Positions 49,226 to 64,000 of a stretch of DNA of 64,000 bases are shown here, piece after piece; position 1 is the stretch's first letter; the number at the start of each line of letters is the position of its first letter. Both the position numbers and the translations under genes were made by a program. The DNA comes from Spizellomyces punctatus DAOM BR117 (lineage: Eukaryota): NCBI GenBank assembly GCA_000182565.2, contig KQ257455.1. One strand, given 5' to 3'. The notes under the pieces were generated by a model. The model saw nothing but the letters and a program-made list of their open reading frames with translations. It did not search any database and was not told the DNA's origin.

Positions 49226-51377
49226 ATGAATGTAGACAGCATTTTCAAGGCATGTGTCACACATGTGAAAGGAGTGGATTTGTCTCTCTGAGATCTGGCG
49301 TTAACGATCTTGATTTGAAGCACAGGTCCCAGCCGCGCCGGTTGGCAAGAACAAGCGTAAATTGCCTCCTACACCCGATGACGCATATCTAAAGAAAGTA
49401 CGAACAGACGAGGACGATGACGACTTTCGTGCGGGATGGGGACCTGGTACTGTTGGAAGTAGTAGTGGGAATGGGGGAGGAGGCGAGTTGGATGGGCCTG
49501 TGAGAGATGACGACGAGGACGAAAGGTTTCATGAAAGTGGACTTAGTGATGATCAGAAGAAAATTTGGGAGATTGTAGACGCCGGGGAGGAGGTGAGTAT
49601 CATAATCAGTCGTCGGGCTAGACCTCGTAGGGTGCAATCCGGGAACTGAGATCTCCCTCCCTCAGGCACCAGCAACGATCGATTTGCCAACACTCAAGAA
49701 AATGGTTCTGAAATTTGAAAAAGTTATCAACAGGAACCAAGAGCTACGTGTAAAGTATAGCGATAATCCACTCAAGTGCGTCGCTGAAGCTTGTCTCGTA
49801 CGTATGGGTTCCAATGGCCTCACATAATGCCTTTAGATTCATCGAATCAGAAGCAGACTTGGATGAAGAGATCAAAAATATGCTTACTGCAAGTGACGCC
49901 CCCGAACTTTATCCCAACCTCGTTGAACTAGGGACCCACGTCAGTATCCTTTCCTTACTCTCCCACGAAAACACAGATATATCTATTGCTGCCGTGGAAC
50001 TTTTGAACGAGCTCACAGATGAAGAGTTGGTCACAGAAGCCTCAGAGGCCGCAGAAGAGGGAATGAAGGCACTGGTAAAAGCCCTAGTAGAAAGTGACGC
50101 GCTCGATCTCCTTGTGCAAAATATTTCCCGCCTTAATGAAGACCAAGGAGAGGATAAACAAGGCGTTTTTAACACCATGAGCGTAATAGAGAACTTGATA
50201 TCCATCGATCCTTCAATAGCGGAAGTTGTTGTTGAAAAAACGTCCTTCCTATCTTGGCTATTGCAACGAGTCCGGGTCAAGACATTCGACTCTAACCGAC
50301 AATATGCATCTGAGATGCTGGCAATTCTACTCCAAAACAGCCGACCGAACCGGATAAAGTTGGGCGAGCTCGGCGGTGTGGATACCCTTTTGCGGGTCAT
50401 AGCAGCATATAAGCGCAAAGATCCTAAAGATCCTGATGAAGTGGAGTTGATGGAGAATATCTTTGACGTGTTGTGTGCCGCGCTGATTGAACCGGAAATC
50501 AAAGAAAAGTTCCTTGAGGGTGAGGGACTTGAATTGATGATTCTTATGCTGAAAGAGAAGAAAATGTCGCGGATGCGAGCGTTAAAAGTTTTGGACCATG
50601 CCATGTTGGGAGCGGACGGCGCGTCGTGTTGCAATCATTTCGTAGACATACTGGGTCTCAAAACACTGTTCCCAGCCTTCATGCGGAAGGGAATGAAGAA
50701 GTACAAGAAAGAGTACAAGTCATTTTCGGAGGCTGAGGAGAATGAACATCTGGTCTCTATCATCTCTTCGTTATTCAAAAATGTGACGGAACCAGCGTCT
50801 CGTGCGCGGCTCATGCTTAAATTTGAGGAGGCGGACTACGAGAAGGTTGACCGATTAGTAGAGATGCATAAAACCTATGCAGGACGAGTCGCAGACGCAG
50901 ATAAGGAGATTGAAGACAGGAAGAAAGAACTCGAAGAAGAAGATTTGAGTGATGATGAGAGAGAAGCTGAAGAAGAAGAACTCTTTCTGAAACGGCTGAC
51001 TGCGGGATTGTTTACATTACAGCTGGTGGATTTCATTATGGCTTCTGTATGCGTAGAAGACAAGGAAGGCCGGGTTCGTACATCGCCCTTGGCGTAGTGC
51101 TCGTTCAGGAACTGCAGTCTTACAATTTCCCCTACCCTTAAAGATACGAGACAGAATAACCTTACTGCTAGAGAAAGACGGCCAGACTCTTGAAAGCATC
51201 AAAACAATTCTCAAAGGTGCGCCTTTTGCATGCTGTACCATCCAGAAATGAAAAATTTCCGACTTACGGCTATCTTTGTAACCTGTAGAATATGCCGAGA
51301 ATGTGGGTGATGGAAAGGGAGACAACAGAGAGAATGCAGAGCGAGACAGGATATTAGGCCTGGTAGAAGCCTTATAG
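49226..51377 (+). CDS. CTNNBL1: Beta-catenin-like protein 1 (Prp19 complex)
   Basis: MNVDSIFK|VP..NKRK, NQELRVKY, FIESEADLD, LLSHENTDI, NRQYASE.LAILLQ and AGLFTLQLVD. Confidence 0.95.
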
Positions 51378-60006: not shown

Positions 60007-61113
60007 TCAGACCGTTGCGCCAGTGATTGTACTCGCTTGGCCAGCTACAGATGATGATGCAACCATCGTGTCTCCTGCGACCAAACCATGCTTTGCAGAA
60101 CCAGCCTTGTTACTTGCCGGGGTTTGCGATCGTTTATCGAATCCGTTGATGACGTGCACTAGTGTGTAAAGATACACAAGTCCGAGTGCATAGTATACAC
60201 GGATAGCATATTGGCCGGCAATCATTGTTTCTTCTATCCGCTTTGCGACGATCGTGATGAGGGAGGCGAGGGCGAGCACAAGTGCGACTGATAGGGCGCC
60301 AACGAGAAATCTTCGAGCTTTGATTTGCTCGGGAGTTTGTTCCCTGCGGAGGTCCTTTTGAAGCCTTCGTACGAGTACCAATGTCCCTCCGTAAAGGAGG
60401 AAATCTGAGAGGATGATCCACAGAACAAGTATGGAAGACCCGAATCTACGCAAAAGGACAAGTGAGCCAGGTGAGCTTTCATACACAGGCCTAAAGTACC
60501 TACATGACGGATGTTCCAAAAGGAAAAACCTTTGATATGGACATATTGTTGTACGTTTCTTCGGGTAGAAGGTCCACCACAATGTTCAATGCCCACGCCC
60601 ATGCTCCTAGCACGACCGTCAAACCCTGGAGGATTCGACACAATCGCACCGTGTACCATCTAGCAATATGCCGGAACGCTTTGAATCGTTCCAAGGAAAG
60701 TAAGGTGTACAGGGCACCAGCAAACATATTGAAACCGAGAGCAATGCCGCCACCGATATCACGTCCGCAACCTTTCGTCTCGCAAACCACATTCAGAATC
60801 CAGCTCAGGGTACTCATTGCATCTGATATGCTAAGGGATAGTAAATCAGTTTTTGTACGCACCGCAGCAAGCGGACAAACACTCACCACAACAGTATCCA
60901 ACAGAGCACGAGGAAAGCATTGAACGTCGTCCTCTTCTTCCACCATCTTTCAAAACATATGTGAGTGATGATATGTCAAGGTTTTCATCGACCGAGGCGT
61001 CCTGTCACCCGATGGACCTACTTTGTGGCGGTAAAGACCGTTACCGCGACGGTAAAAACACACAGGCACGCATTCGCAGCAAGTTTCCCTGGATAGGTGC
61101 TTCGATCGCTCAT
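60007..61113 (-). CDS. Seven-transmembrane GPCR-like protein (4 exons)
   Basis: Spliced model starting MSDRSTYPGK.. gives about 7 hydrophobic helices, an ERF motif at the end of TM3 and a Ser/Ala-rich tail. Confidence 0.7.
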
Positions 61114-61960
61114 TTCATAGTTTTGTAAAGCTTATTGCAAAAAAGAGCGCGAAAGAAGGGGTTTGGGTCGGGTGCATATATATTTATAAGGTTATGTTTG
61201 ATTTGATCCCTTTGTCTGCTCGGTCAACACATCCCCCCAAATAGAACTAAACAGACGCAGTGCCACGCCGTGTCGAGTAAAGCTTTGACCTTTACCTACG
61301 GTTCATTCCTTGTTGCCCAAATTAGCCTTGGAGCCTTTCTGTGCTTCATTTCGCTTTTGAACCACTCGATCGAAGGGTGTGCGATGCACCAACGAACCGC
61401 AAGCAACAAAAGCAACTTTATTTCAATGTCGGACAAAAAGCATAATCTGATTTCATAAGCACTGTGACCAAAAATGGAAACAGGGCTTTTCTCGCCGCGG
61501 ATTTAAAGTTACGGATGTTTACCTTTGAGCTGAGGGTTTTGGTCCCAAAATTAGGCCATAGATTTTGTATTGATGCAAAAGTTATTGTAAATGGATGACA
61601 CTCTGGAATAAGCAAATATCAGAAACTTTTATCATGCAGTCCCGTAGGTTAACGTAGTGGAGATGTAGTGACAATGGAGTCGAATGTTATATTCCAAAAA
61701 GCATGAAGGTGCGACACATTCCTTGAAGATGCGCTATCAACAATGGTTCTTCATATCCGCATCATCCATATCTTAGTGTAGTAGCTTTCCTTATTTTGCC
61801 AAGTACGAAACAATGATCCTTGGAGTTGCTTGGGGGATTCCACTAATGGTTCCGTAAGCGATTAGTAAGCCAATCACGTTGTCGCGTTCGACGTGTCGCG
61901 ATTCCGCGGGCAGGAGGTGTCCGTCTCCTTGAAATGCCCGTATATGCACATAGGAGTTAA

Positions 61961-62180
61961 GGGGGCCGAATAGTCCAGTTGGTTAAAGCGCAGACGTGCG
62001 ACTCGACTGACCGGCGTTCGACTCCCCGTGTGTGAATTGGTTGGCTGGGACTGTAGTGTGCGTGGTGCGAGCAGCTACCTCCGTCTTCGGATTGGAGCTC
62101 TATGATTGTTCCTAAGGCGGGGGGGAGGGCAGTCATAGGGAGGGCCCCGGCGGGTGAAAGGGGGCTTGCGTTATGTTTTG
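61961..62180 (+). ncRNA. tRNA-derived Pol III element with a structured 3' body (novel ncRNA or SINE)
   Basis: A box TAGTCCAGTTGG and B box GTTCGACTC in a T-arm-like hairpin at tRNA spacing. Four abutting hairpins follow, then TTTT at 62176-79. Confidence 0.6.
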
Positions 62181-63665
62181 ATATCTTGAAAGTTTTGTAA
62201 CTATCCATTACGCCTTTGGCCATCTCGTCGAGTGTTGTTGAAAATATCTAATGTCTTTTGGGGCTATGCAGATGTCCTAGGCACACCAGTCTGTTTGATG
62301 CACGTAGTGGAGCAGCACTTTTGAATCTAAGATACAATATCTCACTTGGTGTAGTTCCTGATTGGAACTGCCGACTTCTGAACGGTTAAAACTAACCGTG
62401 AGTAGCTGCACTCCGCGCTAACAGATCAAACATTATCATCATTAAAGTGAAGGCCAGAGAGCATCCAGGTGACGTTCGCTCATGCTGGAGGGTTGCCGCA
62501 CCTGGAGTGCATTTGACATGCCAGCGGGACAACCAAATGTGTGCGTGCCTTGTGAAAGTTCAAGAAACAGCCGCGATCTGTGGACGACGGCATCATATAT
62601 TGGATCTAGTTTGAAGCATATTGACATCCCTTTAATAAATCACCATCGAATAGAATGGTTGGCCAAACTACATTGCATTACCGCAAAGCAATTGAAGCTA
62701 CTCGAACTCTAGCGGGTTTGGAGTGAAACGAGGTGGTTCTAAACCCACAAAGAGCATTCCATGCTCATCAGTAAGCACATAAGGCTCTGACTGCTGAACG
62801 GAATGCTATCACGATGGTCCGTATGCAGGGTTGACAGCTGCACGTGGATCTATCAATTGCACAGCAAATATGTCATCATTATTGTAGAGCGGGACAGAGC
62901 GGGAAGAAGTGAATGTATCCGTGGAAATCGGTCGATGTTCACTTGAGACGAACCATCGGTTGATTTATTCGTATCTACTATGTACGACACGTACTAATAG
63001 CGGGAACCTGATCGATGGTGCCGGAAATGCAAGTGATTTCGGTTTGAGTGTTGCATGCACATGTTGGGGTCAAGGGATCTTTGTTGAAAGCCTTGGGGTC
63101 CCCTGGTTCTTGCTGAGCTAGACGCCGGAACCAATCGTTCCAGAGATATCTTTGTAGATCCCTGCCTGAACTTTGATGCGTTTTGCGTGTAATTACAAGT
63201 AGGACACTACCGACCATACAACAACCGATGAGTGTCTCTGATAGGCAGCGTGCGTTATGGGAGAGAGGCCATGCAGGCAAGGGGAAGACGACGACTTTAT
63301 ACATGTACGTATAATTATATAGTGACGCTCTCAAGTCGTCCAAGATCGGAGGGTAGCACTGAGTAGCTGGTAATCCACCATCTGATCTTTTTTTGTCGAC
63401 CGGAAGTCGTAGAATGGTAGGAGGACGAATCAGGATCCATTATATTGTGTAAGTATGGCTTTCCAGATGGGCTTGACGAAGTACGGATATCGTTCCCTGC
63501 TTGTGAGCTGGCGGTTTTCCCTAGCAGGTCCGTATACTCTTAGCATAGCAAATCACCCCTAACCGCCCACGTTGTCGAACGTGGGCTTTTATCCGCTGGC
63601 ATGTCTTCCCTCACATACCCAACAACCTTTGAGGTTAAAAAGGTGATGAGTATCAGAATGCCCTG

Positions 63666-63675
63666 TATATAAAAG
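63666..63675 (+). promoter_or_regulatory. TATA box
   Basis: TATATAAAAG, 63 nt upstream of the ATG at 63729. Confidence 0.6.
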
Positions 63676-63728
63676 CGTCCATCATCCCGAAGGCTATTGT
63701 GCACGCGACTTTGAAGACAATCAACGCA

Positions 63729-64000
63729 ATGAGATTCTTATCGACCTTGACCGTCTTGGCTCTTGTTGGTCTTGGGTTCACAAACGGTATGGAAATTGAC
63801 AAACAATGTTGTACCCAGACCTCTCACGTAACCCCACACTAGCCAATGAATATACACGTCTCGATAAGAAGAATGCAGTGCTCCTTGTAGTCGATCATCA
63901 AGTTGGACTTTTCCAGCTTGTGAGGGACTACCCGCCGGATCAATTCAAAAACAGCATCCTTGCCCATGCGGCCATTGGAAAAGCTTTTCAGCTGCCGACT
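63729..64000 (+). CDS. Secreted YcaC-like isochorismatase-family hydrolase (partial)
   Basis: Signal peptide MRFLSTLTVLALVGLGFTNA, then YTRLDKKNAVLLVVDHQVGLFQLVRD..FKNSILAHA. Not in the ORF track because it is truncated by the window edge. Confidence 0.88.

Follow-up and report, generated by a model that had tools for sequence, protein, structure and literature searches.

We identified, in an intergenic stretch of chytrid DNA, a GC-rich element of ~370 bases that can be classed as neither tRNA nor 7SL RNA and that probably represents either a small mobile element or a family of small-RNA genes not described before. It carries RNA polymerase III (Pol III)-type motifs at tRNA-like spacing, it occurs in several copies, and its homology to other copies stops at a T-run. 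From these features we infer transcription, the ends and fold of an RNA, and any function that RNA may have, for example as a ribonucleoprotein (RNP) scaffold of the vault, Y or 7SL class. The reading we put forward, at somewhat less than even confidence, is that the sequence may belong to a lineage-specific family of Pol III genes, low in copy number, whose hybrid promoter joins a TATA element to A/B boxes and whose RNA is ~215 nt long.

Genomic setting of the element

The window (the whole stretch of DNA that was analysed, 64,000 nucleotides) contained ORFs corresponding to pieces of a beta-catenin-like protein, coatomer, Sua5 and aconitase. A 427-aa ORF (49814–51097) was 99% identical to a Spizellomyces punctatus DAOM BR117 protein and 95% identical to that of a second Spizellomyces, which identifies the DNA as that of a chytrid fungus. 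GC content climbed from ~0.40 to 0.55–0.65 between ~61850 and 62179. None of the six ORFs neighbouring the element had a Pfam match.

A coding reading of the minus-strand ORF that crosses the element (61960–62247, 96 aa) was rejected. Word-indexed searching returned no relatives for it, and exhaustive searching returned only five low-complexity matches, all to long repetitive proteins. Coding is also disfavoured because one copy of the element carries a 5-nt indel. All three minus-strand frames are open across the element for 63–96 codons (61957–62247), which probably just follows from how rich in C that strand is.

A decayed tRNA-like head and Pol III-type signals

The 5′ part of the element, on the plus strand, is a decayed tRNA-like head (61964–62028). 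Around its start lies the G-run GGGGGCC (61961–67), followed by the A-box-like TAGTCCAGTTGG (61971–82), both read from the sequence, and by a canonical B box (62016–25). The B box lies within a T arm, CGGCG-TTCGACT-CCCCG (62012–28), in which four of the five stem pairs form. A first-pass annotation of this DNA had placed A and B boxes with a T arm at 61964–62027, and they are indeed there. Generic forms of the two boxes (TRGYNNARYNGG for the A box and GTTCRANNCC for the B box, with a permitted gap of 25–55 nt) occurred in this order once in the 64-kb window, and the combination appeared in only 1 of 150 first-order-Markov random windows (mean 0.0067 per 64 kb). The observed A-to-B gap was 33 nt, the same as the canonical class-I tRNA spacing, and the head is therefore most likely truly tRNA-derived.

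Upstream of the head, the plus strand reads TATATG at 61941–61946, a TATA-like site of putative function that sits 20 nt 5′ of the G-run (61961) and 30 nt 5′ of the A box. A TATAW motif 15–35 nt upstream was true of only 3.4% of window positions. The GC-rich and CpG-rich block that surrounds this site (61812–61960, plus strand) is common to other copies and contains CCAATCAC as well as palindromic TCGCGA/CCGCGG motifs; it may act as a promoter from upstream, or form the 5′ portion of a longer repeat.

At the other end of the element, the T4 run that had been reported downstream of a series of hairpins was present on the plus strand at 62176–62179. It is a candidate Pol III terminator and marks the right limit of homology with other copies, in one of which (record 4) it is apparently T6. 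Only 2.5% of window positions lie as near to the end of a run of at least four Ts as this homology limit does. For fungal Pol III, a run of four Ts terminates weakly, and the next T-runs along the window are likewise of four. The TATA-like site (61941), A box, B box and T-run stand in the correct order on the same (plus) strand, and in box order, spacing, T-run and TATA-like site the element has the sequence features of a type-2/hybrid Pol III unit.

Comparison with tRNA and other known RNA families

The head does not behave as a functional tRNA, as the first-pass annotation had maintained. Its acceptor, D and anticodon stems are unpaired; ARAGORN detected no tRNA genes in the window at default settings and gave implausible models only with relaxed thresholds; and the Rfam tRNA model did not match a 231-nt query (61955–62185) at E ≤ 10. 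A split or permuted tRNA, a tRNA with a long insertion and a tmRNA were each considered and rejected, the D and anticodon stems being unpaired and ARAGORN, relaxed or in tmRNA mode, returning nothing credible.

No Rfam family matched anywhere in the whole window at the gathering threshold. At E ≤ 10, queries covering 61800–62350, 61955–62185 and 60500–64000 returned only chance lncRNA/leader matches and a weak SNORD38-like match elsewhere, so a clean hit to an already known family was found at neither threshold. The Rfam Vault model did not match the element, and the SRP models gave no match at the gathering threshold or at E ≤ 10 (231–551-nt queries). Identification as a snoRNA, telomerase RNA, U-snRNA or RNase P/MRP RNA was rejected, with no Rfam matches and no box motifs or template seen by eye. 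The SNORD38-like match (60931–60997, minus strand) scored 17.7 bits (E 7.5) against a gathering score of 44; it has a terminal stem and a GAUGA C box, and may be an intronic C/D snoRNA in a minus-strand gene, or chance.

Short blocks in the element had been described in the first-pass annotation as 7SL-like, and to us too they look so; no Rfam SRP model supports the resemblance. An AGCA at 62070–73 adjoins a short stem-loop, and the matching 5′ AGG and GNAR loop are absent, so that the helix-8 motif of SRP RNA is incomplete, in line with its reported absence. The proposed tRNA/7SL chimera likewise found no backing: at E ≤ 10, queries of 231–551 nt matched neither the SRP and tRNA models nor those of other families. 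A link between the element and 7SL is unsupported.

Other copies and the limits of the repeat unit

Copies were sought in contigs over 61700–62500 from four of seven public runs (X2–X5 of X1–X7). A contig from organism B showed no differences from the window in 281 nt (62287–62567), and this organism is therefore nearly identical to that of the window. Its contigs carry at least three other copies of the element, ~3–15% diverged, which makes at least four versions when the window is counted. Contig depth was 2.1–2.8 for the copies versus 2.0 for a unique contig, which argues for a low-copy family and not a prolific repeat. Homologues therefore exist, and the copy-number check suggested earlier came out for a multi-copy sequence, the several diverged copies (at least four versions) disfavouring a single syntenic gene.

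The most complete comparison was with record 4, which was ~97% identical to 61902–62179 with seven substitutions and a 5-nt deletion at 62116. No difference is listed for it before 62047, an absence that is unreliable because repeat contigs can be chimeric. Past the T-run, more than 250 nt of record 4 are unlike the window. Record 1 had three differences across 62121–62181, with G at 62139 versus A in record 4, and was then also unlike the window. By eye, records 1 and 4 are alike past the T-run, yet unlike the window, so the repeat may extend further in these two copies. Record 5 had four differences in 37 nt (61972–62008); its loose ends appeared homologous on both sides by eye, and the B box in one of them was degenerate. 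Record 3 differed at one position in 40 (61848–61887), with flanks that by eye were similar, with indels, to ~61812.

The left limit of the shared unit lies between 61775 and 61848 and its right limit at 62179–62182, and the unit coincides with the GC-rich island. Homology reaches at least 110–140 nt upstream of the tRNA-like head, and that of the window copy with records 4 and 1 ends at the T-run (62179 and 62181). A candidate 7-bp target-site duplication, ATATCTT (61768–61774 and 62181–62187), would bound a 406-bp unit (61775–62180). It is the only 7-mer abutting the right boundary. When the left region was shuffled, 431 of 2000 versions had a 7-mer in common with 62176–62192, and the duplication therefore lacks significance. 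The 64-kb window held no second copy or repeats of the element, and no Helitron, LTR or TIR ends or inverted terminal repeats were seen at it, by eye or otherwise. On the plus strand the unit has no A-rich or simple-repeat tail and ends in the T-run.

Metagenome scans with a 23-mer (62093–62115) and a 21-mer (61971–61991) found no relatives of the element. The 23-mer had no matches and the 21-mer two, one of which (L001) was a chance match. The other, an AT-rich metagenome contig (L002), carries at 1040–1180 on its minus strand this A-box 21-mer (TAGTCCAGTTGGTTAAAGCGC), with a B box, TTCGACTCCC, 21 nt after it and the A-box motif partly duplicated. ARAGORN predicted no tRNA there and the contig aligns with the window nowhere else; the stretch reads as an independent decayed tRNA-like relic.

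Downstream of the element, the region 62241–62669 is covered by short contigs from organisms B and C at 99–100% identity (62287–62567, 62359–62544, 62241–62380 and 62520–62669), and one contig in this region has 11 unlike letters before 62241. No convincing ORF or Rfam match was found in 62241–62669, and the contig cover could reflect a transcript, another repeat or just sampling.

Predicted RNA fold

The four plus-strand hairpins described in the first-pass annotation are present in the places claimed for them, and the minimum free energy (MFE) structure of 61961–62180 contains them, closed by a stem between 61962–67 and 62143–48. Their strength varied. The GUAG.../...CUAC hairpin at 62053–62078 is weak (z −0.24; 77 of 200 shuffles fold equally well), and that with a C(UUCG)G loop at 62079–62097 scored z −1.49 (15/200). 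The 11–12 bp hairpin with a G-rich apical loop at 62098–62140 is the only locally significant structure among the four (z −3.49; 0/200). The segment 62143–62165 is predicted to form either the 3′ strand of the closing stem (62143–48) or an alternative GCCCC/GGGGC hairpin (62144–62165; z −0.65; 50/200). The closing stem itself, anticipated as a pairing of the 5′ GGGGCC with 62143–48, had a pair probability of 0.79–0.80.

As a whole, the element folds no better than its shuffles, a result that counts in part against the earlier proposal of a multi-hairpin Pol III RNA. The z-score of 61961–62180 was +0.28 on the plus strand, where 118 of 200 dinucleotide shuffles fold equally well, and −0.72 on the minus strand; those of 61820–62180 were −0.66 and −1.18. 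The T arm had a pair probability of 0.0 in the ensemble. The plus strand folds more stably than the minus strand because it is G-rich, its shuffles folding equally well, and the G–U pairs once taken to favour the plus strand are mostly an effect of composition. This strand also has six tracts of at least three Gs (G7, G3, G3, G3, G3 and G5) in the 46 nt of 62119–62164, which amounts to strong G-quadruplex potential; the G7 tract holds the 5-nt length difference between copies.

Differences between copies were placed on this structure. The substitutions listed for record 4 number six: four preserve a pair, one destroys a pair and one falls at an unpaired position of the MFE structure. The pair-keeping changes convert G–U to A–U at 62083 and 62139, and C–G to U–G at 62068 and 62147. 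G62083>A, G62139>A and the pair-breaking T62059>C are all among these six, and C62147>T, present in two other copies, leaves a G–U pair in the closing stem. The 5-nt deletion at 62116 falls in the apical loop of the 62098–62140 hairpin. There were no double compensatory changes among the six listed substitutions, which come from one other copy. The pattern is compatible with a plus-strand RNA, four pair-keeping transitions out of five being near the chance level.

Relation to known Pol III genes

Hybrid promoters and conserved 5′ flanks mark some Pol III genes, among them vertebrate vault RNA and 7SL genes and the U6 families. The element resembles such genes in having an upstream TATA-type site together with internal A/B boxes and a T-run terminator, in the predicted stem joining its 5′ end to a 3′-proximal segment, and in its few copies, among which promoter and body are conserved and flanks are not. 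Unlike them, it has no Rfam Vault, SRP, Y or U6 match, and its ~215 nt exceed the length of known vault RNAs. The vault-RNA reading is weakened because vaults appear lost from fungi, according to one report (PMC3762200). With 7SL RNA the element shares its size class, Pol III-type signals and the AGCA (62070–73) by a short stem-loop; it differs in lacking an SRP model match, in its incomplete helix-8 motif (5′ AGG, GNAR loop, 3′ AGCA) and in a predicted fold without the long helix 5 topology.

Yeast RPR1 and SNR52 and plant tRNA–snoRNA dicistronic genes have tRNA-like leader promoters. As in these genes, a tRNA-like 5′ module would give A and B boxes to a downstream non-tRNA RNA. The element differs from them in having no acceptor stem for RNase P/RNase Z cleavage, and in a downstream part without a match to the RNase P, MRP or snoRNA models, where no C/D or H/ACA boxes were seen.

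Gene family, mobile element or relic

The order of the TATA-like site, A box, B box and T-run on one strand, together with the end of homology at the T-run, makes a Pol III unit the most economical explanation. Whether such a unit is a gene depends on how the copies arose. They could be insertions, without selection, of a non-autonomous plus-strand mobile element of ~370–406 bp, SINE-like or other, driven by a tRNA-derived Pol III promoter, an explanation that we consider rather unlikely. As in tRNA-derived SINEs, a decayed tRNA-like head with A/B boxes at tRNA spacing is joined to an unrelated body, most SINEs having a tRNA-derived head with these boxes, and the several diverged copies lie in unlike flanks; one of them, ~85–89% identical, has a decayed B box. 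The unit is a compositional island with sharp limits, ATATCTT flanks 61775–62180 and abuts its right limit, and the fold as a whole does not stand out from shuffles. Against insertion stands the homology extending at least 110–140 nt upstream of the head, where a Pol III-transcribed SINE should start. There is also no A-rich, simple-repeat or LINE-derived tail, the end being a T-run. A short T stretch closes some plant SINEs, Au SINE among them. The flanking 7-mer is not a significant target-site duplication (431/2000 shuffles), no inverted terminal repeats were seen, copy number is low by contig depth, and the 64-kb window has no second copy. Upstream homology, the missing A-rich tail and low copy number together argue against a classical SINE and fit gene copies that carry their own promoter.

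A cloverleaf destroyed save for its boxes and T arm, a fold not better than shuffles, and upstream and body sequence common to copies, as in DNA-level duplicates, would also suit a dead tRNA gene in low-copy duplicated DNA (a segmental duplication or gene-converted block), its hairpins and T-run incidental and no stable RNA made. The similar decayed stretch in the unrelated contig L002 means that relics of this kind occur elsewhere. We regard this as improbable: homology ends where the T-run does (2.5% by chance), the repeat unit is small and sharply bounded, and a body ~97% identical between copies whose flanks are unalignable at 80% requires selection or mobility. Very improbable, in turn, is a 5′-truncated minus-strand retroelement copy, for example of a LINE 3′ UTR, with its 3′ end at ~61775, its truncation at 62180 and the plus-strand motifs antisense and irrelevant. 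Such a copy would need an A box, B box, TATA-like site and T-run aligned by chance on the opposite strand. AAGATAT does occur on both sides and the A-rich AAAATAAGGAAAG lies near the left end on the minus strand, but this A-rich stretch is 11 nt from the candidate duplication. Records 1 and 4 are alike beyond 62181 and the window is not (by eye), as expected of longer copies; against this, no reverse-transcriptase or endonuclease remnant was found in the six neighbouring ORFs, none of which has a Pfam match, and the minus-strand ORF lacks true relatives.

The Pol III gene family itself meets contrary evidence, namely no match to a known family, a fold like that of shuffles, a weak T4 and a degenerate B box in one copy, and with these in view we hold it only tentatively. 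The sharp unit of ~370–400 bp with a candidate 7-bp flanking repeat resembles a mobile element. Of the original suggestion, a ~215-nt Pol III RNA or a tRNA/7SL chimeric SINE, the Pol III part gains support from the order of the signals and the limit at the T-run; the 7SL component and the classical tRNA-SINE are not supported.

If the element belongs to a Pol III gene family, 61961–62180 would be the transcribed part of one member in a Spizellomyces-type chytrid. TFIIIC would bind the tRNA-derived A box (61971–82) and B box (62016–25), and TFIIIB would assemble on the TATA-like site at 61941, the conserved upstream block possibly helping. Pol III would start at ~61955–61970 and stop at the T-run at 62176–79 (T6 in another copy), giving an RNA of ~215 nt. 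The tRNA-like head would act as a promoter and not as a foldable tRNA, and the G-rich 3′ half would form two or three hairpins, with closure by pairing of the 5′ GGGGCC with 62143–48 possible. The family would spread or persist at the DNA level, each unit bringing its upstream promoter along, like U6, vault and 7SL gene copies. A more specific version, which we consider doubtful, is an undescribed chytrid-specific family of ~215-nt Pol III RNAs that took its promoter from a tRNA gene, whose G-rich hairpin body is kept near-identical among a handful of copies by selection or concerted evolution, and which would be a fungal counterpart of the vault, Y and 7SL RNP scaffolds.

Literature searches turned up nothing relevant on SINEs, vaults, 7SL or SRP RNA, RNase P or Pol III in Spizellomyces, nor on the major vault protein in chytrids or SINEs in Chytridiomycota. 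The Pol III transcripts and short mobile elements of early-diverging fungi are apparently little described. On either reading the finding is a modest, lineage-level one that introduces no new principle. Should the element be mobile, it would be unusual in being tRNA-headed and yet having sequence of its own upstream of that head. A gene family would represent a new Pol III RNA in a lineage that retains many ancestral opisthokont traits, and would offer a natural compact Pol III promoter (TATA, A/B boxes and terminator) for guide-RNA expression in chytrids.
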